Source of the DNA: an uncultured Ignavibacteriaceae bacterium
GTDB taxonomy: Bacteria > Bacteroidota > Ignavibacteria > UBA10030
NCBI GenBank assembly: GCA_964362905.1
Contig: CAYIHQ010000001.1
Span: forward strand, 65,163 to 129,162
Length of the DNA: 64,000 nucleotides
Direction of reading: 5' to 3'
A program made the translations under genes and the position numbers. Position 1 is the stretch's first letter. Each line of letters begins with the position of its first letter. This document shows, piece after piece, positions 12,517 through 57,690 of the stretch. The notes under the pieces are model-generated. The model searched no databases. It was not told the DNA's origin and worked only from the letters and a program-made list of their open reading frames with translations.

Positions 12517-12546
12517 ATGCTACCAGAGGAGGAAGGCGGATCCTAG
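12517..12546 (-). promoter_or_regulatory. Promoter-like element CTAGG-N16-TGGTAGCAT preceded by a T-tract
   Basis: The minus strand reads CCATTTTTTCTAGGATCCGCCTTCCTCCTCTGGTAGCAT. Same architecture as the elements at 26.0, 36.0 and 55.05 kb. It heads the long operon running from 12461 to beyond position 1. Confidence 0.45.
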
Positions 12547-15717: not shown

Positions 15718-16032
15718 CTACGTATCCACAGGTCGTAACATGCTGGCCACCACGGAGGAGATGTAATCCCTGACGGTCGAAGCAAGTGAATCACCACAGC
15801 ACGAGCACACCCAAGTTCTCTGCCCATACGGATGAGCCAGTGCTACCCTTTCCCATGCCTTATCAATGGGAAGCAGAAGCAACACCCCCGACTTGCCACG
15901 GCATTCCACCGCGCACTCCTCTGAGCAATAGCACTCGTTCCAGCAGACAGCTTCACCATCACGGTCAGCGTCCATCTCGATCAAGACAACGTTCTTCAAT
16001 GGTGCGGAGATGCTTGGGATAAGGTCGGTCAC
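15718..16032 (-). CDS. Hypothetical Cys-rich protein (104 aa)
   Basis: The GTG at 16032 forms a GTGA overlap with the stop of 16029..16229. Contains CWNECYCSEECAVEC..CSCCG. Confidence 0.45.
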   Translation of the reverse strand: MTDLIPSISAPLKNVVLIEMDADRDGEAVCWNECYCSEECAVECRGKSGVLLLLPIDKAWERVALAHPYGQRTWVCSCCGDSLASTVRDYISSVVASMLRPVDT

Positions 16033-16229
16033 GGCCTGATCTCGTCGCTTGCCTTCGCCCGAATCGCTGCCGCTCCGCCGCGATCGCGGAAGTTTGCTCC
16101 GACCAACCGACGAACGCACTCCTCCGCTTCCGCGGCAGTCATATCGTCGGCCTCGATGATCTTGGCGCCGGAGCAGAACCTCAACCCCAGCGCAGTCTTG
16201 GTCTCCCACTTGACGAGATACCGCGTCAC
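16029..16229 (-). CDS. Hypothetical protein (66 aa)
   Basis: The GTG at 16229 forms a GTGA overlap with the stop of 16226..16537. The upstream part of the track ORF is Arg/Gly/Pro junk-like. Confidence 0.4.
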   Translation of the reverse strand: MTRYLVKWETKTALGLRFCSGAKIIEADDMTAAEAEECVRRLVGANFRDRGGAAAIRAKASDEIRP

Positions 16230-16537
16230 GGCTTGCGCTCCTCGGCCGGCGGCGGCACACCGATCCAGGTCTTGACGATGATTGAGTCGTGCCCGTCCGT
16301 TGCGCCGTCCGTCTCGTTCCAGGCAATCAGCTCGACGCGGCAGAAGCCCTTGGGCTCCTCGGGATTGGGGTCCTCGGGGGCGACGCACTTCGCGCGCCAT
16401 AGGCGCTCGCTGCGCTCTGGGTCCTGGTCCGGCGCCGGACCCGTCACCTCGATCCAGCCCTCGGATTGGCACGCCGGGCAGCGGCCCCAATCCTCGATGC
16501 GCTGCCGCTCGTCGGCAGCCTCCTCGTAGGTCGTCAC
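16226..16537 (-). CDS. Hypothetical protein (103 aa)
   Basis: The GTG at 16537 forms a GTGA overlap with the stop of 16534..17433. Sequence VTTYEEAADERQRIEDWGRCPACQSEGW. Confidence 0.45.
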   Translation of the reverse strand: MTTYEEAADERQRIEDWGRCPACQSEGWIEVTGPAPDQDPERSERLWRAKCVAPEDPNPEEPKGFCRVELIAWNETDGATDGHDSIIVKTWIGVPPPAEERKP

Positions 16538-17433
16538 GGCGCCACCGCCGCGCCCGCGCGCCAGGTGATGACCGCGTGTTCGCCCTCGGTGGCGACCGTC
16601 GCCACGTCCGCGACGGCCGCGGCCAAGAGCAGCACATACTCCGCGGCCTCCTCGGCGTCGTTCGAGATCACCCACCGGCCGCGGCCCGTGACCGCGACCA
16701 CGGAGGCGCGGCCCAGCACGTCGCCCACGATGCCCCGGACCTGCGCGTCGCGCAGCGGCGCCAGGTCATAGTGCCCCGGCGCGTACTCCACCGACCGCAG
16801 CCCCTGTGTCCCGTCGGTCGGGTCCTGTGCCCAGGTGTCGGTTTGCCGGCGGCAGCCGCACCGCAGGCACGCCTCGTCGATGATGACGCCGCCGCCGTGC
16901 CCCCAGCATCCGGGGTTCTCTTTGATGCCGCCGACGAGCTTGACGGGCGACGCCCACGCATGGCCATCGCCGCCCACGCAATCCGGCTCGTCCGGGTCGA
17001 TCGTGACCCGGTGGCTGGCGCGGTCGATCTTGACCTCGGCCACGTCGACCGGCGGCGCCCCGTGCAGCGGACACTCCGCATCGTCGCACGGGTGCACGTC
17101 GGACGCACACGCCGCGCCGCAGTCCGCGCAGTCGCCGTCGGCGTCCAGCCCGACCCGCCAGGCGCGGACCGTGACCCACTCCGTACGCGTCGATGGCTCG
17201 GCGCCATCGGCGACGTACTCGGCCGCCGCCTCCGCCCCGGACTTGGCATCCGGGTAGGCCACGGCGTTGCCGCCGCTGCCGTCCCGCACCACCCACCCGA
17301 GCAGCAGCACGACGTCACGGCCCTCATCGTCGGTGCCCAGTTCCAGGGCCAGGTCGCGGGCCACCTCGGCTGGCGAGCCGCCGGCCGAGAGCGCAGCGCG
17401 TGCGCGCTGCTCGATCGTCAGGGGAGCGGTCAT
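16534..17433 (-). CDS. Hypothetical Cys/Asp-rich protein (299 aa)
   Basis: Met-133 of track ORF 16534..17829 (MTAPLTIEQ) forms an ATGA overlap with the stop of 17430..18440. Contains DADGDCADCGAACASDVHPCDDAECPLHG and CLRCGC. Confidence 0.55.
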   Translation of the reverse strand: MTAPLTIEQRARAALSAGGSPAEVARDLALELGTDDEGRDVVLLLGWVVRDGSGGNAVAYPDAKSGAEAAAEYVADGAEPSTRTEWVTVRAWRVGLDADGDCADCGAACASDVHPCDDAECPLHGAPPVDVAEVKIDRASHRVTIDPDEPDCVGGDGHAWASPVKLVGGIKENPGCWGHGGGVIIDEACLRCGCRRQTDTWAQDPTDGTQGLRSVEYAPGHYDLAPLRDAQVRGIVGDVLGRASVVAVTGRGRWVISNDAEEAAEYVLLLAAAVADVATVATEGEHAVITWRAGAAVAP

Positions 17434-18440
17434 GGTCGGTACCCTCCCGCGAACCCGCGGGCCGGGTCGCCGTAGCGGTCGACCAGCTCGGCCGCCGGAC
17501 CCTCGCCGCGCAGGAACGCGGCGACCTGGTCTGGGCTCGCGCAGCCGAGCACCACCTTGACGCGCTCGCCCGCGCGGACTGCCGGTGTAGCCAGGTAGGC
17601 CACGCCGAGGAGGCACGCTGCCTCCGGCAGCTCGGGGATGTCGCGGGCGCGCGCATCCCGCACCCCAGCCCAGATGTCGCGCATGAGCAACGATACTCGC
17701 GGCACCGAGCGCAGTGCCTCCTGTGCGGCCGCCACGTCGGCCAGCACGGACTCGACGGTCCGCTTCTGGTGCGCCGCGCGCGATACCGCGCGCCATTGCA
17801 GCAGCGCGACTAGACCCACGCCTGGGCACTTACCCCGGCAGGCCGCGCCGAGGCAGTGGTCGGCCGCAGCGGTGAGCACTAGGTCGTGCGGCACGCGCGC
17901 GATCACGTCGGGGGCCACGTAGACCCACCAGTCTGGGTCGTCCGCGCCCGGCGCGGTGTACGGCGCCACGAGCGCGCCGGGGACGCCGGCCACCATCCAC
18001 GGTAGCCGCTCCCAGGTCAGCAGGCCGAGCCGCGCCAGGTGCGCGATGACCTGGCCGATCGAGCTGCCGGCCAGGAACTCGGCCGGCGGCCGGCCGTAGC
18101 CGGGATCGCCGGGCCGGTGGTGGTCGATCACCACCACCTCGCTCTGCCCGAGCTGCGCGGCCTGCTTCAGGGAGCAGTCGGGGTGCCAAGAGCACTCCAC
18201 GCGGTAAACCGTCCCGTAGGTCGATGGGTCAGCCGCCGTCTCACCGCTCAGCAACGCCGCGATTGCTAGCGTCGAATCAACGAGGTGAGGCGGGTCAGCC
18301 TGATAGGCCGTCTCCGCCGTCACACGCCTGCCGGCCTTCGTGGCGTACTCCACGGGCTCACCGGCGGCGCGCAGCAGCGCCTCGATAGCCGCCATCTCGG
18401 GGTCTGGCGCCCCGAGCACCCACAGGGTAGGAGCGCTCAC
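17430..18440 (-). CDS. DHH-like phosphoesterase candidate (336 aa)
   Basis: GTG at 18440 (GTGA overlap with the upstream stop). VVVIDHHRPGDPGYG followed by GSSIGQVIAHLARLG resembles DHH motif III and its downstream helix. N-terminal LGAPDPEMAAIEALL could be a degenerate motif I. The functional call is tentative. Confidence 0.4.
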   Translation of the reverse strand: MSAPTLWVLGAPDPEMAAIEALLRAAGEPVEYATKAGRRVTAETAYQADPPHLVDSTLAIAALLSGETAADPSTYGTVYRVECSWHPDCSLKQAAQLGQSEVVVIDHHRPGDPGYGRPPAEFLAGSSIGQVIAHLARLGLLTWERLPWMVAGVPGALVAPYTAPGADDPDWWVYVAPDVIARVPHDLVLTAAADHCLGAACRGKCPGVGLVALLQWRAVSRAAHQKRTVESVLADVAAAQEALRSVPRVSLLMRDIWAGVRDARARDIPELPEAACLLGVAYLATPAVRAGERVKVVLGCASPDQVAAFLRGEGPAAELVDRYGDPARGFAGGYRP

Positions 18441-18821: not shown

Positions 18822-18830
18822 ACTATAGCA
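18822..18830 (-). promoter_or_regulatory. Extended -10-like element TGCTATAGT, 7 nt upstream of ATG 18814 (implies a leaderless mRNA)
   Basis: The minus strand reads TGCTATAGT-CCTGGGC-ATG, with no SD. An A/T palindrome lies just upstream. Confidence 0.45.
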
Positions 18831-25986: not shown

Positions 25987-25992
25987 GGGCAC

Positions 25993-26023
25993 AGCCTACC
26001 ACCAAGGGGCCACAGAACCTAAA
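25993..26023 (-). promoter_or_regulatory. Promoter-like element TTTAGG-N16-TGGTAGGCT, 6 nt upstream of ATG 25986
   Basis: The minus strand reads AAAAAGTTTAGGTTCTGTGGCCCCTTGGTGGTAGGCT-GTGCCC-ATG. Confidence 0.45.
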
Positions 26024-26333
26024 CTTTTTCTGAAAATCTTCCGCGGGCTAAGGGCTTTGAAAAGCGGAAGAAAACGCTGAGAACATGACCCGTCTTCGAG
26101 TTGTTGGATCCTAACATTTTTCGGCGCTTTTTTACGGGCTACCTCAAAGCCCAAAACACCGAGTATTGCGCAAGCCGGACGGGCAAGGGGGGTCACGGAA
26201 GAGGTTGACCACTTTCTACGTTGTTGGGCAGCGTTATCCGCCACCTCACATTCTCAGCTCTTGCAGAGCTTATCATTGGGTGGTTCAAAATCCTAGAAGA
26301 AAAGGCAAAGCGCACCCAGCAACCCCCCGCCGC

Positions 26334-31682: not shown

Positions 31683-31949
31683 TCAGTGAATCGTGTGCTC
31701 GCCCGTGTGCAGAAAGGTGTAACCACTCTCCCCTGTGGTTCGGTGGAGGTAGCCACAGGCATGCAGCCACCCCCAGTCCAGAGCAGGGGTCACGAGCTGC
31801 ACCAGCACCGGACCCCGCTGACGCACGACATACAACAACATGGCATGCCGTAGCCCCTCAGGCAGAGCCCCCAGCTTCACGGCATCGAGTAGTCGGACAC
31901 CGCGACGACGGCAGGAGTTCAGATGCTTGTTGAACTGTCGAGAGATCAC
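31683..31949 (-). CDS. Hypothetical protein (88 aa)
   Basis: ORF with ATGA coupling to the upstream gene. Confidence 0.45.
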   Translation of the reverse strand: MISRQFNKHLNSCRRRGVRLLDAVKLGALPEGLRHAMLLYVVRQRGPVLVQLVTPALDWGWLHACGYLHRTTGESGYTFLHTGEHTIH

Positions 31950-32320
31950 GAAGCCACCTCCTCCGGGTAATTCGAGTAGCCTGCGTATGTCACCTCGTTG
32001 CGCTCGTCACCCACCACACGGCGAACATCCACCACGACCCTTCGATGGAGGATACCATTGGGAGAACACAGCGTGTCCACTCCCATCATCGCCGCGAGGA
32101 GGATATCGTTGGGGAGCATGTTCACCATCGCCGCGAGTGTAACACGCGCGCGGTGACGCCCTCGGGAGGAGAAGACGATAAAATCGTCGATCTCGTGCCC
32201 CTGATACTCTCCCTCCGCGACGACGAGCCGGAATATCCACTTGGGGTCGCCACACGGAGTCGTCTCGACACGCACCTCTTTCACCGTGCAAGTGTAGAGA
32301 CCAGATGGGATGGTTTCCAT
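31946..32320 (-). CDS. DUF669-like protein (124 aa)
   Basis: PSGLYTCTVKEVRVETTPCGDPKWIFRLVVAEGEYQGHEIDDFIVFS resembles the DUF669 pattern (G.Y...i..ve...s..G.p.l...f.v..Ge..G). Tentative. Confidence 0.45.
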   Translation of the reverse strand: METIPSGLYTCTVKEVRVETTPCGDPKWIFRLVVAEGEYQGHEIDDFIVFSSRGRHRARVTLAAMVNMLPNDILLAAMMGVDTLCSPNGILHRRVVVDVRRVVGDERNEVTYAGYSNYPEEVAS

Positions 32321-32334
32321 GGCTTGAAAGTCTA

Positions 32335-32640
32335 TCAGAAAACCACGTCAGGTGGATCAGAAAACCAAAACTGTGGCTGGCTAGGAGCATTTCTAGCCAT
32401 GAGTGCGATGATAGCGCGCACATCGCTATTGCTATCTCCAACCCTGCGGGCTCTTCGGGCTACTTTTGCTAACAGTATCCTTTCGAGCTTGGTCAGCAGT
32501 CTTTCTTGCTTGGTCGGTCTTTCTTGCTTGGTCGGCATGTTCCTTCGGTGCATGAGTTCAATCACCTTATAGGTCAGGTTTTTGACCCAGTTCTGGACGA
32601 GGCTAGCCGTTGAGTCGTCTGGAGACGTTTCACAGTTCAC
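32335..32640 (-). CDS. Hypothetical protein (101 aa) with a PTKQER duplication
   Basis: ORF containing an 18-bp perfect tandem duplication at 32499..32534. Confidence 0.5.
   Translation of the reverse strand: MNCETSPDDSTASLVQNWVKNLTYKVIELMHRRNMPTKQERPTKQERLLTKLERILLAKVARRARRVGDSNSDVRAIIALMARNAPSQPQFWFSDPPDVVF
32499..32534 (-). repeat. Perfect 18-bp tandem duplication (gtctttcttgcttggtcg x2) encoding PTKQER x2
   Basis: Read directly. Confidence 0.9.
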
Positions 32641-34662: not shown

Positions 34663-34971
34663 TCAGAGGGAAGCCTCGTAGCGAGTGAAGTCCGCGTAGA
34701 CCGCTGGACTATACGTAGCGAGCGTAATACGCGCTGTATTCTGCACTTGGAATACTTCAGGGAAGGAGAGAAAGACTCTGGACCACTCCACCTCACCAGA
34801 GTACCATCCTGTAGGAAGCCGAAGGCACTCAGGAACTTGAGCATTCCGTTCTGGGGAAAGCCATAGCCCCTCGCCCCCTCTCACTGGGGTCACCCGCAGA
34901 ATCCCCTCAGCCCAGCGCGTCGTGGTGGCGATCAGCCCCCAGGGAGAGCGTGATCCAGAAGATGGGATCAA
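34663..34971 (-). CDS. Hypothetical protein (~102 aa)
   Basis: Only the C-terminal part of track ORF 34663..35190 can be coding. A TTG at 34971 forms a TTGA overlap with the stop of the pentapeptide gene. Weak evidence. Confidence 0.3.
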
Positions 34972-35618
34972 GGCAGCTCCTCCGCCTCCAGGCAGACCGG
35001 ATGCTCGTCGTCGGGCTGGATCCACTTCCGCAGCTCCGCGATGGCCCACTCGCGCTCGGGGTGCTGCCACGTCGCCCACTGGTCCCAGCACCAATCGGTG
35101 CGTCGGCCAATGAAGGCAGCCAGCATCTGCCTCGGCTCGGTGTCCGCGGCAAGCCAGAGAATCTCCGAAAGGAGCGCATGGCTGGCCCACGCCAGTTTCG
35201 CGCCGCGCAGGTAGGCGCCGCGCAGGTAGGCGCCGCGCAGGTAGGCGTCGCTCAGGTCGGCGCCGCTCAGGTCGGCGCCGCGCAGGTAGGCGTCGCTCAG
35301 GTCGGCGCCGCGCAGGTAGGCGTCGCTCAGGTAGGCGCCGCTCAGGTAGGCGCCGCTCAGGTCGGCGCCGCTCAGGTCGGCGCCGCGCAGGTAGGCGTCG
35401 CTCAGGTAGGCGCCGCGCAGGTAGGCGCCGCTCAGGTAGGCGCCGCGCAGGTCGGCGCCGCTCAGGTAGGCGTCGCTCAGGTCGGCGCCGCGCAGGTCGG
35501 CGCCGCTCAGGTAGGCGCCGCGCAGGTCGGCGCGAAGCGACTCGTCAAGCGCAGGCACCGGCGTGCCTGGTGCCGTCGCGCGGCACGCCGCCGCGAAGGC
35601 TTCGAGCCGTGCCTTCAC
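34968..35618 (-). CDS. Pentapeptide-repeat protein (216 aa): 23 consecutive A[DY]L[RS][GD] units plus a Trp-rich C-terminal domain
   Basis: A GTG at 35618 forms a GTGA overlap with the stop of 35615..35830. Repeats read [20 protein letters not shown] ... AKLAW. Confidence 0.85.
35187..35531 (-). repeat. 23 tandem 15-bp units (consensus ggcgccgcgcaggta / ggcgccgctcaggtc on the plus strand) encoding the pentapeptide repeats
   Basis: Directly visible periodicity in the sequence from about 35190 to 35530. Units differ at only 2-4 positions. Confidence 0.9.
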
Positions 35619-35830: not shown

Positions 35831-36027
35831 GACTTACCCCCGTGCGCGCGGAGCAGATCGTCGTCGAGTGGGAGCGCGTCGTCGAACGGCCGCATTGCAA
35901 AGGGATCATCACCTGGCGAGGGTGAACGACGCTCCGTCTCAGCCGCGCACTCCCGCGCATCCCCTTGCAGATGCGCAAGCCGCGCAACCTGCCTAGCCAG
36001 CTCGACGTAGACCTTGATGGTTTCCAT
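35827..36027 (-). CDS. Hypothetical protein (66 aa), first gene of an operon
   Basis: Met-39 ([10 protein letters not shown]) of track ORF 35827..36141. The ATG lies 6 nt after the TGGTATCCT element. Confidence 0.5.
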
Positions 36028-36033
36028 GCGAGA

Positions 36034-36063
36034 AGGATACCACAAAAAGAACCGTGAACCTAG
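36034..36063 (-). promoter_or_regulatory. Promoter-like element CTAGG-N16-TGGTATCCT, 6 nt upstream of ATG 36027
   Basis: The minus strand reads AAAAAAGAAGCTAGGTTCACGGTTCTTTTTGTGGTATCCT-TCTCGC-ATG. Confidence 0.45.
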
Positions 36064-47242: not shown

Positions 47243-47735
47243 TCTTCACCGAAGCCGTCAGCCTCTCGAATAGCCCACGAATGGCCTCTCGACGATCGGG
47301 GGCAATGCTCTTCACACGCTCTTCCCCCACAACAACAGAGTCCTCTTCCAGTACGCTGACCACCCCTGCACGAGAAGTCTGCCTATCCAGAGTGGCCAGA
47401 ATAAACTCAGACTCTTCTTTGCTCGTGTGCAGCAGCAACGTGCCAACCTGTACCAGCGTCTTCAGCGATGCCTCCTCCAACATCGCTGGGTCCATAATGC
47501 GCGCCTCCACACGATCCATCATCTCCACCAGCGTTCGCAGGCGCTGGGCTTTCTTCAGCGCAAGAACTTGGGTGAACATCCCCAGCTTCACCGCATTGGT
47601 CTCCACCACAGCCGCAAGCGCTTCTCGCGTGTCCTCCGCTACGGGAGTACGATCAGCTACCCAGCTCGCAGCCCGTTGCAGCAGCTCGTCGATACCCAGG
47701 CGGCGCGGTGGGGGCAGGGGTGCTGGATCAGACAC
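47223..47735 (-). CDS. Hypothetical helical protein; positional candidate for the small terminase subunit
   Basis: 170-aa ORF directly upstream of terL, overlapping it by 20 nt. No motif recognised. Confidence 0.4.
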   Translation of the reverse strand: MSDPAPLPPPRRLGIDELLQRAASWVADRTPVAEDTREALAAVVETNAVKLGMFTQVLALKKAQRLRTLVEMMDRVEARIMDPAMLEEASLKTLVQVGTLLLHTSKEESEFILATLDRQTSRAGVVSVLEEDSVVVGEERVKSIAPDRREAIRGLFERLTASVKNATNGR

Positions 47736-48057
47736 GTCGATGCAACCCCTTCATCCGAAGCAGCACGCTACGAACTTGCTGTGTGGTGAGCCCATGCTTC
47801 TCCGCCAGAACCTCGTAGGAGCTTCCAGACTTCCCTTCGATGAAGATTGTGGCGTCGCGTACGGCCATGCGTATTACAGAAACATCAGGGATCTGAATAG
47901 CAGACCCTGAAAACATCTCTATCAGCTTGATGGTAGCTTCATAGCCAATAGCCCTGTAAATCTCAGGGAGTAGTGTGTTCTCACCTGCGGCCATGAAAGC
48001 GAGGTAAAACGCATCTGCCAGCTTGATCGACTTGTCTAGTGTATTAGACCGCCGCAA
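47728..48057 (-). CDS. Mor-like transcriptional activator (HTH)
   Basis: AIQIPDVSVIRMAVRDATIFIEGKSGSSYEVLAEKHGLTTQQVRSVLLRMK follows the Mor family pattern (IP....R...I...f.G.ny..LA.kyglt..qv..i). Confidence 0.5.
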   Translation of the reverse strand: MRRSNTLDKSIKLADAFYLAFMAAGENTLLPEIYRAIGYEATIKLIEMFSGSAIQIPDVSVIRMAVRDATIFIEGKSGSSYEVLAEKHGLTTQQVRSVLLRMKGLHRRV

Positions 48058-50149: not shown

Positions 50150-50274
50150 GTTATCTCCTGACCTTCCAAGTTACGCGCCCGAACAACGAGCAAGACGGAT
50201 TCTCTCTTGCGGATCACATCCATCACCACGATATCGCTCGCCCCGATGGTGGTCTTGCGATCGTTCATGGTCAT
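50146..50274 (-). CDS. Possible 42-aa protein, below the ORF-track threshold
   Basis: My translation is MTMNDRKTTIGASDIVVMDVIRKRESVLLVVRARNLEGQEIT. ATGA overlap with the upstream stop and GTGA overlap with the start of the lipoprotein gene. Confidence 0.35.
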   Translation of the reverse strand: MTMNDRKTTIGASDIVVMDVIRKRESVLLVVRARNLEGQEIT

Positions 50275-50744
50275 TGGTCACCGCGCCGTTGGTTGCGCCT
50301 GATTTCGGCTGCTAGCTTGGCAAGCTCCGGGTCCTCCCTGATCGCTATGCCCGCCCACTGCTCGGCCTCTTCCTTGGTCCCGTCGAACTCGCCCGCGATG
50401 ACTCGCTTGACGAATGCTTCGACAGCTGGGTCGCAAGGAACCGCGCGGGCCGCTCTCAGTTCCTCGACAAGCCGGATCTGCGGCGTCGCGTGCGGTGACC
50501 GGTAGTCGTCAAACTCGTCGGCACGCGCACGCGCGGCCAGATCGTTGAAGCCGGCCGACTCCAGGGCGCGAGCCAGCTTGTAGCGGGTCGGAAGCTTGGT
50601 CAGCGTGCACTCGGACACCTTGAGGCCAAGCGCGCCGATGCCGCGCAGCTCCTGCGCGTATCGGTCGGCCTCGTCCTTGTTGTCGTAGATGCCTTCGAGG
50701 CCCTGGTCAGACTGGACTTGCCAGCCGATCTTGCGGTCGTTCAT
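50271..50744 (-). CDS. Hypothetical protein (157 aa), G+C-rich block
   Basis: Met-38 (MNDRKIGWQVQ) of track ORF 50271..50855. Confidence 0.55.
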   Translation of the reverse strand: MNDRKIGWQVQSDQGLEGIYDNKDEADRYAQELRGIGALGLKVSECTLTKLPTRYKLARALESAGFNDLAARARADEFDDYRSPHATPQIRLVEELRAARAVPCDPAVEAFVKRVIAGEFDGTKEEAEQWAGIAIREDPELAKLAAEIRRNQRRGDQ

Positions 50745-50950
50745 GGGTCTCCTGTGAAGAAGCTCCCTCACGTCACCGAGACTTGCAGCAGGCGAAAGGT
50801 TCAGGATGACCACTTGAAAAAGCCTCCGGCTCGGATCAGATGAGCCGGAGGCCAAGGCAGGTGACCCGCAGGTCGCCAGGAAAGGAGTCTACCACACCAC
50901 CACCTCGGGGCGGTGCCTTTTCGCCTCCTGCCGTCGCGGTGTCCCCCGCC

Positions 50951-51494
50951 TCATACCAGCACCCTCTCGCCTGTACAGAAGGAGTAGCCGGCCGTCTTGA
51001 CACCCGGGCGGCCGACGATGATGGAGTCCGCCATGTCGATGCCGAACATCTCAGCCGCAGCCCGGATTCGTTCGGTGCAGACCTCATCATCCGGTGAGGG
51101 GGTCACGTCGCCGCTGGGGTGGTTGTGCGCCACGATGAACCCTGGCGCGGCGAGCACGATCGCCGGCCGCAGCACGTCGGCGGGGCGGCACAGAGAAGCG
51201 GTCGGCGTGCCACGAGACACGATCTGCGTACCGATCAGGTTGCGCCGCACGTCGACTCCACGTAATGTACACGCAGAGCTGCCCACCATACATGCTCTTG
51301 AAGTACCCTACATGCCGATCGCCGGCCATCGTCAGCCCCTGAGACGGGTGGCATGCGTATCCCAGGGCTTGCTCCAGAGCTAGTAGACTTTCGCGGCGTA
51401 TGTGCCGCAGAAAGGTCTTTCGCGCGATGCCTCTTCCCCGTTGAATCATATCACGGAGAGAAGCAACATCCGGGCAGTTGAATTGGTAGGTCAT
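50951..51494 (-). pseudogene. RadC-like JAB/MPN (JAMM) protein with an apparent +1 frame break between the N-terminal region and the JAB core
   Basis: The JAB core VDVRRNLIGTQIVSRGT..GFIVAHNHPSGDVTPSPDDEVCTERI..DSIIV is in ORF 50951..51289. A protein-like N-terminus (MTYQFNCPDVASLRDMIQRGRGIARKTF..) is in ORF 51087..51494, whose last ~65 codons are Arg/Ala/Pro junk. The ORFs overlap by about 200 nt. Confidence 0.55.
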
Positions 51495-52612
51495 CAGACG
51501 ACCTTGACCCGAGTAAGCACGGTCTGCCGAATCCCCTCCCAGGAATCGTGCTTCTTGACGGTGGCCTTGACCGCTACAAAATCCGAATCCGACCAGAAGG
51601 GCGATTTCTCATCGTAGGCCGGATCGTTGCTCGCCCACCACACGAAGGAGTGATGAACCTCGTCCTCGAAGGCGCAGCGGTAGGACGGGCCGTAGCTGCC
51701 CTCGAAAGCCCGCTTGTTGACGAGCCGCAGCCGCAGGCTCAGCCGCTGCCCGGGCGCACCAACCCACTCCGGGTTGGCCATCTTCCGAGCGAACTCCTTG
51801 CGCTGAAGAGTCTCCTGCTCGCGCCGATAGCTCGCCAGGAGAGAGACGGTCAGGCCCAGGTTCTCCGCGCCCACCGTATCCTGGCAAGCGATCGCAGCCA
51901 GATTGGCCAGATAGGTCGTGGGATTGTCGGTCCCGAGGTTGCGCGCCCAGGCCAGAGCCGCATCCACCTCGGTCTCCAGCTTCTCCGTCAGACGACCCTG
52001 CACGCGCTCCGCCCACGCGAGGTACTCGGCACTCGCACTCTTTTGCAGGGGAGGATGGAGCAGCCTGTCTACGCCATTGGCAGTAGACGGCTTCAGGCAC
52101 TCCTGGGAGACCTTTTTGGATACCCATCCCTCCTCGTCGATCACTGCCCCAGAGAGCAGCACGACGTAGCGCACGTCGAGCACGGCACGGCCACCGACAC
52201 CACCGAACGTGGGCTCGTAGCCCGTCTCTTCCTCGCGGAAGGCATCTAGACCCCACACGTAGGCGATCAGACCCCCGGGAGAGAGCTTGGTCGATCCGAG
52301 GAAATCCGCCAGGCACTGGCGCCCGACCTGGACCACCCGGCCGTCCTCCGCCTGGAGGATGAAGGTCTCCGCCCGGCGGCGAGCCTTCTGGCAGTGGTCG
52401 CAGATCGAGCCACGGTCGCGCTGATCCGCCGGGACCACTTGCCCAGGGACTTCCCGGATGATGGGGAGCTGGTCCCGGAGGGAGACCACACCCAGGAGCG
52501 CCCAGCCCCCAGGAAGACGGGGCGAGCGGCCCGAGATCGTCACCTCGACGAAGGGCTCACGGATGATCCGCACGAGCCGGAGAGAACAGCGCATAACTCG
52601 ACTGCGCTGCAT
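51494..52612 (-). CDS. Hypothetical protein (~372 aa)
   Basis: Track ORF 51494..52750; start uncertain (52750, 52612 or 52594). Contains ICDHCQKARRRAETFILQAEDGRVVQVGRQCLADFLG. Family not recognised. Confidence 0.55.
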   Translation of the reverse strand: MQRSRVMRCSLRLVRIIREPFVEVTISGRSPRLPGGWALLGVVSLRDQLPIIREVPGQVVPADQRDRGSICDHCQKARRRAETFILQAEDGRVVQVGRQCLADFLGSTKLSPGGLIAYVWGLDAFREEETGYEPTFGGVGGRAVLDVRYVVLLSGAVIDEEGWVSKKVSQECLKPSTANGVDRLLHPPLQKSASAEYLAWAERVQGRLTEKLETEVDAALAWARNLGTDNPTTYLANLAAIACQDTVGAENLGLTVSLLASYRREQETLQRKEFARKMANPEWVGAPGQRLSLRLRLVNKRAFEGSYGPSYRCAFEDEVHHSFVWWASNDPAYDEKSPFWSDSDFVAVKATVKKHDSWEGIRQTVLTRVKVV

Positions 52613-52731
52613 GGTGACCGAGGCGCGCGCTACATCGCCCGGTGCCGCGCATGCGATACCTACACCTCGGCCACGTTCGCGGGGCGCTACCTGGTCGGTG
52701 GATCGGGCGGTTCGTCCCGCTCCGGGTACGC

Positions 52732-52896
52732 CTACATCCCTTCGCGCCACCCGAGTGTGGTAGGCGGCCCACGCCAGATGCAGACAGCCACACCGGCGGC
52801 CGCGCGGATCACCTCATCCGCCTGCGCGGCGTCGGTGGTCGCGATGACCCACTCGACGCCATCCGTCGCAGGGGCATCTGGCCGGAGGCGGAACAT
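52732..52896 (-). CDS. Hypothetical small protein (54 aa)
   Basis: The ATG at 52896 overlaps the upstream TGA by 1 nt (TGATG). Confidence 0.3.
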   Translation of the reverse strand: MFRLRPDAPATDGVEWVIATTDAAQADEVIRAAAGVAVCIWRGPPTTLGWREGM

Positions 52897-53195
52897 CACA
52901 CATCCTCCTCGGCACGCACTGCGCGCGCGGCGGCCGAGTCCCATCCCACCGGCGCCGGGCCGTTACCCTGGAGCGTGCTCGGGCCTGCTACGATCGCCCG
53001 CCCACCGCCCACGCAGCCCTTCGTGCGCACGCCCGCGCAGCGCGGGTGCGCCACGCCCCAGCGGCTGCCAGCCCGGAGCAACAGGGTGTCGGCCAGCTCG
53101 AACGAGCGGTCGCCCGTTTGGGACTCGCAGACCACACACCGGCCTGCGAACTTCACCCCCAGACGGTTCACCGTCCAAGTCGTCGTGGTTTCCAT
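52896..53195 (-). CDS. Hypothetical protein (99 aa), first gene after the terminator
   Basis: The ATG lies 7 nt after the TGCTACACT element. Confidence 0.45.
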   Translation of the reverse strand: METTTTWTVNRLGVKFAGRCVVCESQTGDRSFELADTLLLRAGSRWGVAHPRCAGVRTKGCVGGGRAIVAGPSTLQGNGPAPVGWDSAAARAVRAEEDV

Positions 53196-53202
53196 GGGCA
53201 GA

Positions 53203-53211
53203 AGTGTAGCA
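53203..53211 (-). promoter_or_regulatory. Extended -10-like element TGCTACACT, 7 nt upstream of ATG 53195
   Basis: The minus strand reads TGCTACACT-TCTGCCC-ATG, immediately after the terminator T-tract. Confidence 0.4.
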
Positions 53212-53220
53212 CAAAGAAGG

Positions 53221-53256
53221 CGAAAAAAGAAGCGAAAAACTCAGCGCTTTGCTGAG
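53221..53256 (-). terminator. Rho-independent terminator after the XRE regulator gene
   Basis: The minus-strand RNA is CUCAGC-AAAGC-GCUGAG followed by UUUUUCGCUUCUUUUUUCG. The hairpin includes the stop codon at 53241-53243. Confidence 0.5.
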
Positions 53257-53591
53257 ACCTCCAGGGTACGCGCAAACTCCAGGAGTAGGCGCTGATCTCT
53301 ATCCCGAAGACGCACGAAGAAGCGCAGCAGATGCTGACGCGCATCAGAAAAGCCGAAGGCGTCGATCGCACGTAGACCAAGGAGATAATCCGTAGTCACA
53401 CCAAGAGCCGATGCCAGCAAGATGAGATTGGAGAGCGAGGGTAGGCGCCGCCCCGTCTCGAAGTTGGAGATGGCACATGCGGGTCTCAAACCTGTCTTCC
53501 GCGACAGCTCTGCCTGCGTGTAGCCCCGCAGCTCTCGCGCATTACGCAGATTCTTCGCAAAAACCACCTTGTCCAGTTTCTTCATCGTCAC
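53241..53591 (-). CDS. XRE-family helix-turn-helix transcriptional regulator
   Basis: LRNARELRGYTQAELSRKTGLRPACAISNFETGRRLPSLSNLILLASALGVTTDYLLG is a canonical Cro/C1-type HTH. Confidence 0.8.
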   Translation of the reverse strand: MTMKKLDKVVFAKNLRNARELRGYTQAELSRKTGLRPACAISNFETGRRLPSLSNLILLASALGVTTDYLLGLRAIDAFGFSDARQHLLRFFVRLRDRDQRLLLEFARTLEVSAKR

Positions 53592-53597
53592 ACCACA

Positions 53598-54152
53598 TTA
53601 TCCCACGTAGAGGTAGACAAAAATCGAAGGGGTGTGAGTAAAGCTCTCACAACCGGACAGGAGGGCTCTCACAACGATGGGCTCTACCTCATTCCAGTTT
53701 AGTCTCCCGAGCCCGCAGCCAAGACGAGGGATCGCAATGGAACTCAGCTTATAGTGGTGAAGAGCAGCCACCAGGGAGACCATACCGCTCTCGATGTAAT
53801 CCAGCCGAGAGGGCTGCTTCCAATACTGCTTCGTCGGGAAGTTGATGACAAAACGAGGAAGTACCCCTGTCTCATAGGTCTCGAAGACAAAGCACTTTCC
53901 TGGCACAATCTCACCACGTTTACACGCCGCTACGTAGGCCCTGTAGTTCGCCGGCCACGCCTTCTTGAACTGAGCGGCTAGCCCCTTCCCAGCGACCCCC
54001 ACGCAGTTCACGGGATTGACAATGGCTTCGACGCATTGAGCCCCAAGGAGGTCACCTGAGATGTGGGAGATGCAAGCTACGGACACCGGGAGCACCCCCT
54101 CCGCATCACGTAGGAGCCAGGATGCCGAAGGCACTCCTCGGGCTGTCGGCAC
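53598..54152 (-). CDS. Macrodomain protein (ADP-ribose binding/hydrolase)
   Basis: GDLLGAQCVEAIVNPVNCVGVAGKGLAAQFKKAWP and FVINFPTKQYWKQPSRLDYIESGMVSL..IAIPRLGCGLGRLNW are typical of stand-alone macrodomains of the TARG1/DarG-like kind. The start may be GTG 54086 rather than ATG 54152. Confidence 0.8.
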   Translation of the reverse strand: MPTARGVPSASWLLRDAEGVLPVSVACISHISGDLLGAQCVEAIVNPVNCVGVAGKGLAAQFKKAWPANYRAYVAACKRGEIVPGKCFVFETYETGVLPRFVINFPTKQYWKQPSRLDYIESGMVSLVAALHHYKLSSIAIPRLGCGLGRLNWNEVEPIVVRALLSGCESFTHTPSIFVYLYVG

Positions 54153-54745
54153 GTCCCACCTTGGTCGGCCACAGCAGCGAGTGCATCCTCACCCGTACAG
54201 ATACTATCATCTCCGCCGGGAGCAACGAGAGCGATCAGATCAGCTAGGGTAAAGACCAGCTCATCCACCATGGGCAGTCCAACAGAGGGATCCCCTGGAA
54301 TATGCACATGCCAGCGGGGGACGCGACGATACACCAATTCCATCCAGCCATCACCGATGTAGACGCAACCATGCTCTTCCCCCTGCACCTCTTCACAGAG
54401 AGGGCATTCCTCTTCCTCGATCCTGCCACTATTACTCCAGGGGCAGTCTCTCTCGCCGGAGTGGGTGTACCCCCTCACGCGGACCCAGCGTGCGTCCTCG
54501 AAATCCACGATCTCCGGGGCAAGATCACCAAACAGAGCGTCGTAGTAGATCGTGCGGAAATCCCCCTCATAGTCGCGGAACTCGCTCTCCACATAGTCCG
54601 GAACACCCTCATTCCACAGCGGTACCTCCATGGCGCTGCTGTCGTAGGGACCACGCGGCCCCTTGATCGACCAGGGAGTGTCCGCGAAATCGTCCACACC
54701 GAAGACGTGCGCGATTCGCGCAAGTTCTTGACTGTTGAACGTCAT
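54077..54745 (-). CDS. Strongly acidic hypothetical protein (222 aa)
   Basis: Met-17 (MTFNSQ) of the track ORF, directly after the upstream stop. Asp/Glu-rich runs: ESEFRDYEGDF, EIVDFEDARW, IEEEECPLCEEVQGEE. Confidence 0.55.
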   Translation of the reverse strand: MTFNSQELARIAHVFGVDDFADTPWSIKGPRGPYDSSAMEVPLWNEGVPDYVESEFRDYEGDFRTIYYDALFGDLAPEIVDFEDARWVRVRGYTHSGERDCPWSNSGRIEEEECPLCEEVQGEEHGCVYIGDGWMELVYRRVPRWHVHIPGDPSVGLPMVDELVFTLADLIALVAPGGDDSICTGEDALAAVADQGGTCRQPEECLRHPGSYVMRRGCSRCP

Positions 54746-55035
54746 CGCTGTCCCTCCGTCACTGCGGGTAGCACCCAGGGTATCACCCACCAACGCTCAC
54801 CATCTCCACGCAGGTAGCCATCGTCTCGCAGCATGACAAAACCCAGCTTCGCCAGGCTGCGTGCTGTGCGTACCTTGTGTGCGCGCACATAGATCCCACC
54901 CTGCCGACGCACTTCCTTCAGAAGGCTGCGTTGTGCTACCGAAAGCCCCTTCACGACGCATCCTCCTGCGTCGTCGCACCCTCGATTGCCTCCACGATGG
55001 TCGAGGTAGCTCGTTGTTTTCGTGCTGCTTTCCAT
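54742..55035 (-). CDS. Small basic protein (97 aa), possibly winged-helix
   Basis: Met-65 (MESSTK) of track ORF 54742..55227. The ATG lies 7 nt after TGGTAGTCT. LSVAQRSLLKEVRRQGGIYVRAHKVRTARSLAKLGFVMLRDDG looks wHTH-like. Tentative. Confidence 0.5.
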   Translation of the reverse strand: MESSTKTTSYLDHRGGNRGCDDAGGCVVKGLSVAQRSLLKEVRRQGGIYVRAHKVRTARSLAKLGFVMLRDDGYLRGDGERWWVIPWVLPAVTEGQR

Positions 55036-55042
55036 GTGCAAC

Positions 55043-55071
55043 AGACTACCAGAAAAGGAGCTGTCCCCTAG
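55043..55071 (-). promoter_or_regulatory. Promoter-like element CTAGG-N15-TGGTAGTCT, 7 nt upstream of ATG 55035
   Basis: The minus strand reads AAAAACTTCTAGGGGACAGCTCCTTTTCTGGTAGTCT-GTTGCAC-ATG. Divergent partner of the element at 55114..55122. Confidence 0.45.
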
Positions 55072-55113
55072 AAGTTTTTGGAAAAGTTTCTCTACTCTCA
55101 CCACCCTTCCGCA

Positions 55114-55122
55114 TGGTAGGCT
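55114..55122 (+). promoter_or_regulatory. Extended -10-like element TGGTAGGCT, 7 nt upstream of ATG 55130
   Basis: The plus strand reads TGGTAGGCT-CATCCGG-ATG. Confidence 0.4.
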
Positions 55123-55129
55123 CATCCGG

Positions 55130-55567
55130 ATGATCGCGGACATCGTGCGACGGATCCTACTTGCTCGCCACTCGGGGGACGCCCGAGCGGAGAGCGTGGC
55201 CACCACCTGGCTACTCCTGGAACACACCTATTGGGTGAGGGGGCTCAGAGGAGCATGGCACCTGGCTACTCACGCCCACCCCCTCGCCACTGAGCACTAC
55301 CGAGTGACCGTGCTCCGGGGCACCGTGGCAGAGCCAGCTATCTGGTATCCCCTACGACTTCGGGAGCGCAGCATCTTCCGTGACTCTGCGAGCACCGCCG
55401 CCTACGGAACGGTGGCAAAACGAGTCAACTTGCAGCGGGCACAAGAAGCATTCGAGAACATACGAATGGCATTCCAGCTCCAAGACCGGGACATTCTGCG
55501 GTATCACCCATCATCCCATCTTGAGGGTATGCTGTTTCAGTCGTTGGAAGCGGAACTGACAGCATAG
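55130..55567 (+). CDS. Hypothetical protein (145 aa), first plus-strand gene
   Basis: Met-37 (MIADIVRRIL) of track ORF 55022..55567. The ATG lies 7 nt after TGGTAGGCT. Confidence 0.5.
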   Translation: MIADIVRRILLARHSGDARAESVATTWLLLEHTYWVRGLRGAWHLATHAHPLATEHYRVTVLRGTVAEPAIWYPLRLRERSIFRDSASTAAYGTVAKRVNLQRAQEAFENIRMAFQLQDRDILRYHPSSHLEGMLFQSLEAELTA

Positions 55568-55569
55568 TT

Positions 55570-55663
55570 GTTTCGTTACTTAGTCTTGTGGGGTTCTATG
55601 AATCCAAACGCGAAGAAAGTTCGCGGACTCCGCAGAAACCCCAGAGAACTAAGAGACGAAAAC
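55570..55663 (+). other. Long imperfect inverted repeat (arms ~28 and ~30 nt, 36-nt spacer with its own cgcgaa/ttcgcg hairpin); candidate structured RNA
   Basis: The left arm gtttcgttacttagtcttgtggggttct is compared with the reverse complement of the right arm, gttttcgtctcttagttctctggggtttct. It starts 3 nt after the stop of 55130..55567. Confidence 0.5.
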
Positions 55664-55678
55664 AAATGGCAGATGGAG

Positions 55679-55699
55679 GAGAGAGAGAGAGAGAGAGAG
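55679..55699. repeat. (GA)10 microsatellite in the intergenic region
   Basis: Read directly: ggaggagagagagagagagagagagt. Confidence 0.9.
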
Positions 55700-55811
55700 T
55701 CCTTTTCGTCTTAGAAAGTAGGTGGATCCGCTACTTGAAATCGTCGTGATGTACATTCGGGCGCTACAATCATACTCCTGCTAATGCTCCAAGAGCGGGG
55801 GAAGCAAACCA

Positions 55812-56282
55812 ATGCGCTTTTTCATGCTGCGTAAGGCCGCTAGGCGGAGTCGCATTCTTCAGCACCGCCAAGCAGGTCAGTATGCAGTGTTTTCCGCTGA
55901 GAAACGATACTGGCCAAAGAAGGAAAACTGGAGGCGTAAGAAGAAGCTAGTAAAAGAGCTTCGCCGTATCGGATTTGGATTCAAACGAGTAGTTGGTAGG
56001 GGGCAGGAAGATGAAGGCGGCAAAAAAGTAGTCAATCTCGAACGCTCAGTCTTCGTCCCCCACATGCGAAGGACTACAGCCCATAGGCTGGCCAAGCATT
56101 ATCGTCAGGACTACATGGTGCATGGCAACAAGGGAGTTGCCCATCTTATCCATGTGCCTTCGGGGCGAACGGAACTCACTTGGAAGACCCTGAAGATGAC
56201 CCCTGCAAAGTTCGACTCCCTCGTTCGTGGGTGGAGCAAGAAGCTGCGGCAAAAAGGTCATCACGCGTACCACCAAGAATGA
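55812..56282 (+). CDS. Arg/Lys-rich protein (156 aa)
   Basis: ORF with GGGGGAAG upstream. Contains MRFFMLRKAARRSR..WRRKKKLVKELRR. Confidence 0.55.
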   Translation: MRFFMLRKAARRSRILQHRQAGQYAVFSAEKRYWPKKENWRRKKKLVKELRRIGFGFKRVVGRGQEDEGGKKVVNLERSVFVPHMRRTTAHRLAKHYRQDYMVHGNKGVAHLIHVPSGRTELTWKTLKMTPAKFDSLVRGWSKKLRQKGHHAYHQE

Positions 56283-56842
56283 CCAACTCTTTGTGCCTAC
56301 TGCCGCTGCTTCTGGCAGCATGCTCGTGCTCGTGGGGGCGCGTGGAGACACAAGTACAGGACGACGGGCTAGGCCTCATCGAGATCGAGGGCGGGGGCCA
56401 GCCGGTCGCCGAGCTGCCAGTCCACACCTATGGCTTCATCGACGCCTTCTCCGACGGAGCCCACTTCGGGCGGGGCAACATGCGCGCGGACCTGTGGCAT
56501 GGCCTCGGGCCAGTCGTGGAGGCGCAGATCGCCGGCCGAGACGAGACCGCGCGCGGCGGGCTGGCCTACTGGCCAGAGCTACCGATCGCCGTGGCTGTCG
56601 GCACGCACGCGACCATCGACAACGACGGCGAGCCGCAGGTGCGAGTGATGTGGGAAAGTCTCGATCTCTTCACCACCTTCTCCTGCGGAGGCTTCCTAGA
56701 CCAGAACTTCCCGGGCTGGATCGGCGAGGCACAAGTGAGGTACCACGCATGGCGACAAGCGCGACTGCTCGCGGAGATCAACTTGGTAACACCGAGCACA
56801 GACGACTGGTTCTTCGGAGTGGGTGTCCAATGGGCGTGGTGA
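56279..56842 (+). CDS. Lipoprotein, possibly an outer-membrane beta-barrel (187 aa)
   Basis: Met-34 of the track ORF forms an ATGA overlap with the upstream stop. MTNSLCLLPLLLAACS has a canonical lipobox (LAAC). The aromatic C-terminus is GVGVQWAW. Confidence 0.6.
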   Translation: MTNSLCLLPLLLAACSCSWGRVETQVQDDGLGLIEIEGGGQPVAELPVHTYGFIDAFSDGAHFGRGNMRADLWHGLGPVVEAQIAGRDETARGGLAYWPELPIAVAVGTHATIDNDGEPQVRVMWESLDLFTTFSCGGFLDQNFPGWIGEAQVRYHAWRQARLLAEINLVTPSTDDWFFGVGVQWAW

Positions 56843-57441
56843 AGCTCTGCCCCGTCGCCGATGCAACGGCGACGTACACGACGCTTATAGCGGTGGCATG
56901 CGCCTACTACCTCACAGCCACGATCGGCTTGACATTCGCCGTCCCACCTGGCTACGCCACCCTACTCTGGCCTCCGGCCGGGATCGCGCTGGGTGCCGCC
57001 TATGTATGGGGCTGGAAAGCCGCGTTGGCCGCGGGGTTCGGCAGCTACATGGCCAACCTCTGGGTGCCAAGCGCCACAGATCGTGCGATGGTGGTCTTGG
57101 CTGGAGCCTTGCCGGCAGTAGGTGCCGTTGTGCAATCTTGGGTTGGGGCGGTCCTGCTGCATCGCTATTGCGATCGCGATCTGCGCCGTTGGTCCGCATC
57201 CAATGTTGTACGCTACGCGCTGGTGACCATTGCGAGCTGCACAATCAATGGGGTCTGGGGACCAGCTAGCCTTTCGTTCGCTGGATTCATGGATCAGAGC
57301 ACAATAGCACACAACATCCAAACATGGTGGCTCGGCGACTGCCTCGGTGCGCTCGTCTTTGCCCCGCTGCTGATCTTTTTGGTGGGGGAGACACCTGTGC
57401 ATGGCAGAGAACAACGGCAAGAAGCTCGTCCTGAGTCGTGA
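56830..57441 (+). CDS. MASE1-like integral membrane sensor domain protein (203 aa), with no output domain
   Basis: Met-202 of track ORF 56227..57441. ATLLWPPAGIALGAAYVWGWKAALAAGFG plus several further hydrophobic helices resemble MASE1. Confidence 0.55.
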   Translation: MGVVKLCPVADATATYTTLIAVACAYYLTATIGLTFAVPPGYATLLWPPAGIALGAAYVWGWKAALAAGFGSYMANLWVPSATDRAMVVLAGALPAVGAVVQSWVGAVLLHRYCDRDLRRWSASNVVRYALVTIASCTINGVWGPASLSFAGFMDQSTIAHNIQTWWLGDCLGALVFAPLLIFLVGETPVHGREQRQEARPES

Positions 57442-57673
57442 CACGCTCCTGCCAATCGGAGCTGTCATCGCCATCGTTGGCACGCTGCTCGTACTGTCGT
57501 GGCAGGCACGCGGTGCGCTGGCCGAGATCCAAAAGGACATCAGTGAGCGGCCGACACGCGAGGAGGTCCAGAAGATGCTGGGCGCTGACGCTTCGTGGGA
57601 GGACAACATGCGGACGTGGATTCGGGTCTTCCGCGCGCAGGAGCCTACGCTAAAGATCCCAGACACACGGTAG
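57401..57673 (+). CDS. Single-pass membrane protein (90 aa)
   Basis: TM segment LLPIGAVIAIVGTLLVLSW. Confidence 0.5.
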   Translation: MAENNGKKLVLSRDTLLPIGAVIAIVGTLLVLSWQARGALAEIQKDISERPTREEVQKMLGADASWEDNMRTWIRVFRAQEPTLKIPDTR

Positions 57674-57690
57674 AACAATGAGGTAGGACA

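Follow-up and report, generated by a model that had tools for sequence, protein, structure and literature searches.

A TANNNT hexamer lying about 10-12 nucleotides (nt) ahead of the start codon is a well-established sign that a gene is leaderless; such genes make up about 20% of genes in Actinobacteria and about 30-40% in Deinococcus-Thermus (PMC3160421). In Deinococcus deserti this rule has been validated by differential RNA sequencing (dRNA-seq; PMC4007540), and mutagenesis has confirmed it for D. radiodurans and Thermus (PMC12340547); most middle and late transcripts of the Thermus phage phiYS40 are leaderless (PMC3594737). In T4-type phages, repeated promoter cassettes named PeSL (promoter early stem-loop) are found at shuffling junctions (PMC2839356, PMC4122927). 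The DNA analysed here, referred to below as the window, is a stretch of 64,000 nt (contig CAYIHQ010000001.1, positions 65,163 to 129,162) that represents about half of a phage genome of about 129.3 kb, repeatedly assembled from Hainich groundwater metagenomes. It contains a family of extended -10 elements, TGnTAnnnT, most of which directly abut an ATG codon. Taken as a whole, the data are best explained if these sites are σ70/σA extended -10 promoters of the leaderless type, and we consider this reading probable.

The preliminary description of this DNA regarded the arrangement as a phage-specific regulatory code. The layout is, however, the known TANNNT-led leaderless architecture (PMC3160421, PMC4007540, PMC12340547), already reported from bacteria and Thermus phages; recognising it here amounts to sound annotation and reveals no new mechanism. 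What sets the present sites apart is the obligatory TG extension, a (C/T)TAGG element replacing the -35 hexamer and a cassette that includes the ATG and carries on over the first 10-12 codons.

The six TGnTAnnnT-N6/7-ATG sites listed preliminarily are all present at the positions given for them, and the 6-7 nt between the -10 element and the ATG hold no Shine-Dalgarno (SD) sequence in any of them. The four [CT]TAGG elements placed 15-16 nt upstream were likewise found (Table 1), and the list had missed the leaderless-type site 32337 and the CTAGG site 26275. The nine credible sites are located at 12525, 18830, 26001, 26275, 32337, 36042, 53211 and 55051 on the minus strand and at 55114 on the plus strand. 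All nine lie outside called genes and are co-oriented with the downstream gene, and in seven an ATG follows the element after 6-8 nt (N6 in two sites, N7 in four, N8 in one) and opens an open reading frame (ORF) of 66-145 codons. Two other regular-expression matches, at 32144 inside a gene and at 45794 antisense within the terminase gene, where it opens a 4-codon ORF, are probably due to chance and were rejected.

The juxtaposition of the element and the start codon is clearly enriched in the window. TGNTANNNT-N6-ATG occurs twice (0.77 expected) and TGNTANNNT-N7-ATG six times (0.85 expected), a number reached in 0 of 100 shuffles; for TGNTANNNT-N6-8-ATG as a whole, ten occurrences were counted against 2.2 +/- 1.4 expected, with a maximum of 6 in 200 dinucleotide shuffles. 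A composite score was also calculated for each TGNTANNNT, based on an ATG at N6-8, on CTA at a distance of 17-19 nt upstream and on a run of at least 4 A/T in the 23 nt located 17-40 nt upstream of the TG. Two or more of these extra features accompany 11 sites, against 0.19 expected, and all three accompany four sites, against none in 150 shuffles.

Eleven distinct copies, nine from the window and two from the strain variant L003, were aligned on the TG and gave the consensus TTT.cTcTa.gtt....g.cc.cttT.TGgTAg.CT. The information peaks at T, G, T, A and T of TGnTAnnnT (about 1.8-2.3 bits), and the nnn positions vary. The hexamer bases T1, A2 and T6, as well as the TG one base upstream of the hexamer, are present in 11 of 11 sites. 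If the promoter is numbered from the sequence with the A of the ATG as +1, TGn lies at -16..-14 in the N7 sites, a T or A tract at about -50..-38, and (C/T)TAGG at about -36..-32, where a -35 element would be. The preliminary description called CTAGG a recurring element, which is real, but it is found in only about half of the sites (six of 11 copies); the shorter core TCTA is kept more widely. The discriminator is G+C-rich (tctgccc, gtgccc and similar). Downstream, ATG-GAA-A opens seven of the nine leaderless-type ORFs, and ATGGAAAC occurs seven times against 1.2 expected, four of these copies being at promoter sites; the copies at 14885, 19849 and 48499 are devoid of promoter context.

The same layout was found in related phages from groundwater. 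In L008 (173.7 kb, same aquifer, G+C content 50%, terminase 46% identical), T(T/G)GACTT-N13-TGnTAnnnT occurs seven times within about 5 kb (1310-6374), mostly as TTGACTT and TGGTAGAAT. The spacing of the -35 and -10 hexamers is 17 nt, and five of the seven copies end 6-7 nt ahead of a called ATG. Four more such sites are present in L015 (G+C content 53%, terminase 43% identical), and in both phages the ResIII helicase gene begins with GTGCGACTC, 6-7 nt past the -10 element. No such sites were found in the 14-22 kb sampled from each of the relatives L016 and L017 and from L007, mostly long replication or structural operons. A canonical TTGAC -35 element at 17 nt is intelligible only as a signal in DNA for a σ70-family holoenzyme, and the layout in L008 and L015 is the best available evidence that the elements of the window would act as promoters. 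As read from these sequences, the placement of promoters against start codons characterises the clade, and CTAGG is particular to the phage of the window. At one L008 site (4415-4442, minus strand), the ATG of the public gene start is formed from the last T of the -10 element (TGGTAGTATG) and the next ATG lies 10 nt downstream of the element; the called start is probably a mis-call.

The following chain of events is predicted. RNA polymerase of the host carrying a σA-type factor would recognise the extended -10 element TGnTAnnnT, aided by the A/T tract, and would transcribe blocks of mostly small phage genes without assigned function. In favour of the host enzyme, the 25 Pfam families listed, of 30 matched by the 89 window proteins, include no σ factor or RNA polymerase domain. 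In place of the -35 hexamer, the sites carry (C/T)TAGG in six of 11 cases and, more widely, TCTA, next to a T/A tract resembling an UP element. Since the -10 element ends 6-8 nt before the ATG in seven of nine sites, a purine +1 would coincide with the A of the start codon. The mRNA would then carry a 5'-terminal AUG and no SD sequence, and the ribosome would bind this AUG directly. The start at the A of the ATG had been proposed preliminarily; the juxtaposition, the SD-free starts, the public gene calls, the divergent pair at 55043..55122 and the relatives support it well in silico. ATG 55035 is doubtful as a translation start.

Six of the seven abutting ATGs find support as putative start codons. 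The SD score of all seven is 0, and six of the seven have no SD-led in-frame alternative within 60 codons; in-frame fusions of the cassette in strain variants (see below) also speak for these starts. Public gene calls begin exactly at 18814 (L018, 17173), 25986, 32320 (L018, 3667) and 53195 (L001, 4048). The start at 25986, put forward earlier as a revision, agrees with a public call of 100 amino acids (aa) and had therefore already been called. At 36027 and 55130 the public caller stretched the ORF upstream through promoter sequence, and for the 55130 gene a call of 145 aa exists on another contig (P0121); the over-extended calls would be corrected by the promoter/start rule. A usable rule for promoters and start codons is of value for a phage lineage in which nearly all genes are unannotated.

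Initiation among the genes in general was surveyed on a home-made, crude gene map, which was used for the counts of SD sequences and overlaps. Among its 97 gene starts, 42 have an SD sequence, 36 overlap with the gene before them and 37 show neither feature, so the earlier statement that internal genes use SD sequences or overlaps holds only roughly. The SD frequency (42 of 97) compares with a background rate of 8%, and SD motifs do operate in this phage. With about one third of genes lacking both SD and overlap, SD-independent initiation probably exists in this system. The heavy use of leaderless starts hints at a host lineage that tolerates leaderless mRNAs; an Actinobacteria-like or Deinococcus-Thermus-like host is only a guess.

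Table 1. Promoter-like elements, associated motifs and start codons in the window (N, nucleotides between the -10 element and the ATG)
Feature	Position	Strand	Remarks
Extended -10 TGGTAGCAT	12525..12517	-	T6 and CTAGG (12546..12542) 16 nt upstream
P18830, extended -10 TGCTATAGT	18830..18822	-	N7, ATG 18814, 125-aa ORF
P18830, upstream T6-CTCT-A6			CTA in register with CTAGG of other sites
P26001, extended -10 TGGTAGGCT	26001..25993	-	N6, ATG 25986, 100-aa ORF
P26001, TTAGG element	26022..26018	-	
Extended -10 TGATAAGCT	26275..26267	-	T-tract and CTAGG (26296..26292) 16 nt upstream
P32337, extended -10 TGATAGACT	32337..32329	-	N8, ATG 32320, 124-aa ORF
P36042, extended -10 TGGTATCCT	36042..36034	-	N6, ATG 36027, 66-aa ORF
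P36042, CTAGG	36063..36059	-	A6 tract just upstream
P53211, extended -10 TGCTACACT	53211..53203	-	N7, ATG 53195, 99-aa ORF
P53211, hairpin CTCAGCAAAGCGCTGAG then TTTTT	53240..53256	-	Directly upstream; weak, centroid -8.6 kcal/mol
Alternative start of the 55035 ORF	54952..54967	-	AGGAGG (54967..54962), N7, GTG 54954, in frame
ATG of the 55035 ORF	55033..55035	-	7 nt past -10; predicted transcription start; 97-codon ORF 54742..55035
P55051, extended -10 TGGTAGTCT	55051..55043	-	N7, ATG 55035; composite features 3/3
P55051, CTAGG	55067..55071	-	About -36..-32, 15 nt upstream of TGG
Central A/T-rich tract AAGTTTTTGGAAAAGTTTC	55072..55090		Common to both divergent promoters; UP-element-like
P55114, extended -10 TGGTAGGCT	55114..55122	+	N7, ATG 55130
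ATG of the 55130 ORF	55130..55132	+	7 nt past -10; 145-codon ORF 55130..55567; no SD, no SD-led alternative

The region 55043..55122, described earlier as a compact divergent promoter region, has this layout in its sequence: the -10 elements on the two strands make up an inverted repeat with 62 nt between them, and the putative promoters stand back to back with their start codons 95 nt apart. The tract of P55051 includes TTTT at -50..-47 and AAAAA at -44..-40 (TTTTnnAAAA at -50..-41). An UP-element consensus for E. coli was reportedly defined by Estrem et al. in 1998, and its core is in register with this TTTTnnAAAA. Apart from the -10 elements themselves and a pair of unrelated hairpins, a search for operator-like repeats at 54950..55200 found nothing.

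Several observations weigh against the leaderless promoter reading. A scan for canonical σ70 promoters (TTGACA-N16-18-TATAAT) showed no enrichment in the window and none of the sites passes it; with such a non-canonical -35 region, recognition by the unmodified host holoenzyme is an assumption. Further, TGNTANNNT by itself is at chance level, gene interiors included (61 copies against 51.7 +/- 7.5 expected), and TANNNT hexamers lacking the TG show no favoured spacing from an ATG, so that the signal consists in the juxtaposition of the extended -10 element and the start codon. Sites 12525 and 26275 share the promoter class without an abutting start codon. The closest ATG of the former is 23 nt downstream, and this promoter would probably be leadered; the latter has no adjoining start codon and lies within a 347-nt stretch without a called gene. 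The first 30 nt of leaderless ORFs are only modestly enriched in A (0.32 against 0.23), and their 5' structure does not differ from that of other genes. As for the material, about 84 of about 129 kb of the genome was covered by the analysis, and no relative was found either in IMG/VR with the terminase as a single-protein query or in GTDB genomes with a 15-sequence terminase alignment.

The start at 55035 belongs to the same set of objections. The in-frame, SD-led GTG 54954 lies 27 codons downstream and is the start of the public call (70 aa). Homologues of the 55035 ORF, found by exhaustive search, align only from query residue ~25-32, and for most of the short ones the alignment begins at their own residues 1-11. 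Given the SD-led GTG and the starts of the homologues, the leaderless AUG would at best provide a 27-aa extension; both starts may be in use, and ATG 55035 is doubtful as the true translation start. A perfect 8-bp hairpin (ACGACGCA/TGCGTCGT) is located at 54953-54974 on the minus strand; its 6-nt loop GGAGGA is the SD sequence and its 3' arm ends in the GTG start codon. This hairpin may control translation from the internal start.

The missing -35 element leads to the alternative that survives best. The promoters could depend on an activator, a phage factor binding the T/A tract and (C/T)TAGG (about -50..-32) and replacing the -35 contact; the promoters would then fire at set times (middle or late) instead of being constitutive early promoters. 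This possibility, which modifies rather than replaces the leaderless promoter reading, seems rather improbable, although it has several points in its favour. A canonical -35 element is indeed absent, the upstream element stands at a fixed distance from the -10 element, and the relatives without CTAGG carry a normal TTGAC. Some tracts are dyad-symmetric, as AACTTTTTT-ctct-AAAAAAGTT at P18830, but these dyads are partial and occur in some copies only. Candidates for the activator are the Mor-family protein encoded at 47728..48057 (PF08765, 3e-09, above the gathering score; PHROG annotation 'late transcriptional activator') and the Cro/CI-type helix-turn-helix (HTH) protein encoded at 53241..53585, the only regulators found among the window proteins. 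On the other hand, CTAGG is missing from five of the 11 sites, and in some cassettes CTAG has other distances or orientations. The genes driven are small ORFans, with no recognisable late genes among them, extended -10 promoters can function without a -35 contact, as textbooks state, and nothing links Mor with the motif.

In strain variants of the phage, the sites are found fused to different genes. Between 18 and 36 kb of the window the variants are 99.98-100% identical, so that conservation there is uninformative. L010 matches the window exactly throughout the two divergent promoters and the 36 nt beyond ATG 55035 and then passes into unrelated sequence; after the switch the same frame is open for at least 187 codons, and the ATG with 12 codons is thus fused to a different ORF. 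L003 contains a cassette of about 90 bp twice (1260-1350 and 3580-3670), near-identical over this length and each time fused to a different gene. This cassette reads CCCCTAG-T6-CTCTACG-N16-TGCTACACT-N7-ATGGAAAGCGACACGAAAAACAACGAGGCC and has the segment -33..+7 in common with P53211. One of the copies has taken the place of the 5' end in the gene orthologous to window gene 51494..52750 (92% identity over 384 aligned aa, with clear similarity from about residue 57), and the window strain has no promoter at the corresponding position. Junctions of insertions, deletions or replacements that coincide with cassettes are the one in L010, 36 nt past ATG 55035, the replacement at L003 1260-1350 and the L003 insert 2826-3966, which is bounded by or contains cassettes. 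In the sequences at hand, the putative promoter, the ATG and up to 10-12 codons form a repeated portable cassette that recurs at junctions of differences between strains; its first codons encode MES[SD]TK[TN][TN] or MET... The region between the HTH gene and RadC is hyperplastic (L003 891-1092, 1268-1495, 2826-3966 and 4468-5044 against window 50232-53761), and compared with the window strain the H41 strain shows several insertions and replacements there and has three additional promoter cassettes.

These junctions raise the question of whether the repeats are primarily recombination modules like the PeSL of T4, conserved through spread between copies, with promoter activity being secondary or variable. 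Besides the near-identity of the L003 cassettes and the segment shared with P53211, the differences of L003 and L010 from the window begin or end at cassettes, and PeSLs act in this way in T4-type phages (PMC2839356, PMC4122927). Nevertheless, divergent copies conserve the -10 consensus positions and the ATG and not the whole length evenly, and related phages retain the layout with different sequences. Recombination is, moreover, compatible with promoter function and not exclusive of it; as the primary role of the repeats it is unlikely.

It is possible, if speculative, that the evolutionary unit is a 'plug-and-play' cassette of about 90-100 bp, made up of an UP-like tract, a CTAG-containing -35 substitute, the extended -10 element, a leaderless AUG and, from there on, 10-12 A-rich codons. 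Such a unit would be recombined in frame before newly acquired ORFs and would confer transcription and SD-independent translation in one step; its CTAGG would be recognised either by a factor of the phage or through an unusual σ specificity.

A reading at the RNA level, in which transcription starts upstream and UGnUAnnnU-N7-AUG is a signal for SD-independent translation or processing, could draw on the third of genes without an SD sequence or upstream overlap in the crude map, yet it is very improbable: the motif agrees with the DNA extended -10 consensus position for position, the A/T tracts and the CTAGG, 20-40 nt upstream of it, are typical promoter features, the TTGAC at exactly 17 nt in the relatives would be meaningless in RNA, and an Rfam scan of the whole window gave no match. 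Chance co-occurrence, inflated by reading ORFs from the first ATG, would agree with TGNTANNNT alone not being enriched and with the look of matches 32144 and 45794, but it is effectively refuted by the composite counts and by the recurrence of the cassette in strain variants and of the layout in relatives.

The window belongs to a phage sampled in the 0.1-um fraction of wells H41 and H52 (ENA ERZ1292616 and ERZ1292618, plus Logan assemblies). The phage encodes a T4-type portal, a large terminase, an intein-containing class II ribonucleotide reductase and the Mor-family protein mentioned above. The terminase and portal have only distant phage homologues, with less than 35% identity, and a megablast comparison of window positions 52000-58000 with the phage collection gave no match. 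The G+C content of the window is about 59%, and almost all genes are on the minus strand, with the exception of the island 55130..58584. The promoter-proximal genes have no Pfam or PHROG match, except for a weak DUF669/SSB-like match of gene 31946..32320.

The 347-nt stretch 25987-26333 (minus strand), in which no gene is called, contains three promoter-like elements in tandem: 26275, which has CTAGG, 26116 (TGTTAGGAT), which follows A-tracts, and 26001. An ORF of 82 codons at 25996..26244 has a poor coding score and is absent from public calls. Between the 55130..55567 gene and the DUF3293 gene, a gap of 244 nt includes a perfect (GA)10.5 microsatellite (55679-55699, plus strand). Downstream of P18830, the local G+C content reaches 72.8% at 16000-18000, compared with about 58% elsewhere; this part spans genes 16534..17433 and 17430..18440, which have no family matches. 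On the minus strand, TGGTAGACT at 50894..50886 is followed, about 35 nt on, by a strong intrinsic terminator (50852..50817; GCCTCCGGCTC...GAGCCGGAGGC and TTTTT; minimum free energy -35.3 kcal/mol, z = -4.8), which stops 4 nt short of the GTG start of gene 50271..50813. The element 50817-50894 could represent a small RNA of about 60 nt or an attenuator, or it could just terminate the upstream gene.

Gene 10010-10588 (minus strand) has an mCpol/Cas10 palm domain (minimal CRISPR polymerase; Pfam 1.4e-16), and a role in cyclic-nucleotide signalling or anti-defence may be predicted for it. The class II (B12-dependent) ribonucleotide reductase gene 39248-43000 (minus strand) is split by an intein that includes a LAGLIDADG endonuclease; in several relatives, inteins lie in the terminase gene instead. 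ARAGORN predicted a tRNA-Leu(CAG) at 35233-35316 (plus strand), antisense inside the pentapeptide-repeat gene 34968..35618; this tRNA call has no Rfam tRNA match at the gathering score and is probably a false positive.

The bacterial TA-led genes resemble the sites of the window in that TAnnnT ends 6-8 nt before the start, the start codon is AUG and there is no SD sequence; the nnn positions are likewise uninformative in a G+C-rich genome, and SD-led genes coexist with leaderless ones. They differ in three respects: here every site has the TGn extension, the sites are copies of a repeated near-identical phage cassette and not independent host promoters, and seven of nine ORFs share the opening ATG-GAA-A.

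In phage Mu, the Mor and C proteins are activators that substitute for a missing -35 contact. The Mor- and C-dependent promoters and the E. coli UP elements are similar to the present sites in having a good -10 element, no -35 hexamer and an element between about -30 and -55, and a Mor-family gene is encoded here as well. The tracts of the window, in contrast, vary in sequence and polarity, and no evidence ties the Mor-like protein to the sites. The λ PRM-cI unit gives the classic leaderless phage mRNA, which starts at the A of the AUG, and it also has a compact divergent regulatory region; the leaderless transcript was reportedly described by Shean and Gottesman in 1992 (cited in PMC12340547). 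In λ this is one regulated promoter with operators, whereas in the window the family has at least seven members and the search at 54950..55200 showed no operator repeats.

Like phiYS40, a large phage with many leaderless transcripts (PMC3594737), the phage studied here is large and is predicted to make leaderless transcripts. In the megablast comparison of positions 52000-58000 and the terminase and portal searches, no sequence relationship with phiYS40 or P23-45 was detectable, and the setting here is cold groundwater. The middle and late promoters of phiYS40 and P23-45 used by the host RNA polymerase, reportedly studied by Sevostyanova et al. in 2007 and Berdygulova et al. in 2011, are said to have an extended -10 element and no -35 element. 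To our knowledge, neither a CTAGG element nor shared first codons have been described for these phages.

The T4 PeSLs, finally, share with the present cassettes a repeated promoter motif among small variable ORFans of a phage with a T4-type portal, as well as the location of copies at insertion, deletion or replacement junctions of close strains. A PeSL combines a promoter with a terminator stem-loop and serves leadered SD genes; here a terminator-like stem-loop adjoins P53211 alone among the promoters, and folding upstream of the other sites is no better than in shuffles (z-scores from -1.1 to +0.3). With the hairpin and T-run restricted to one copy, the full PeSL anatomy is not reproduced. 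Unlike a PeSL, the cassette of the window includes the ATG and the 10-12 codons after it and would supply the translation start too. Promoter-plus-start-codon modules at shuffling junctions would extend the PeSL idea beyond the T4-like phages of enterobacteria and vibrios, and the 'plug-and-play' cassette, if true, would be a PeSL-like module that also carries a translation start.

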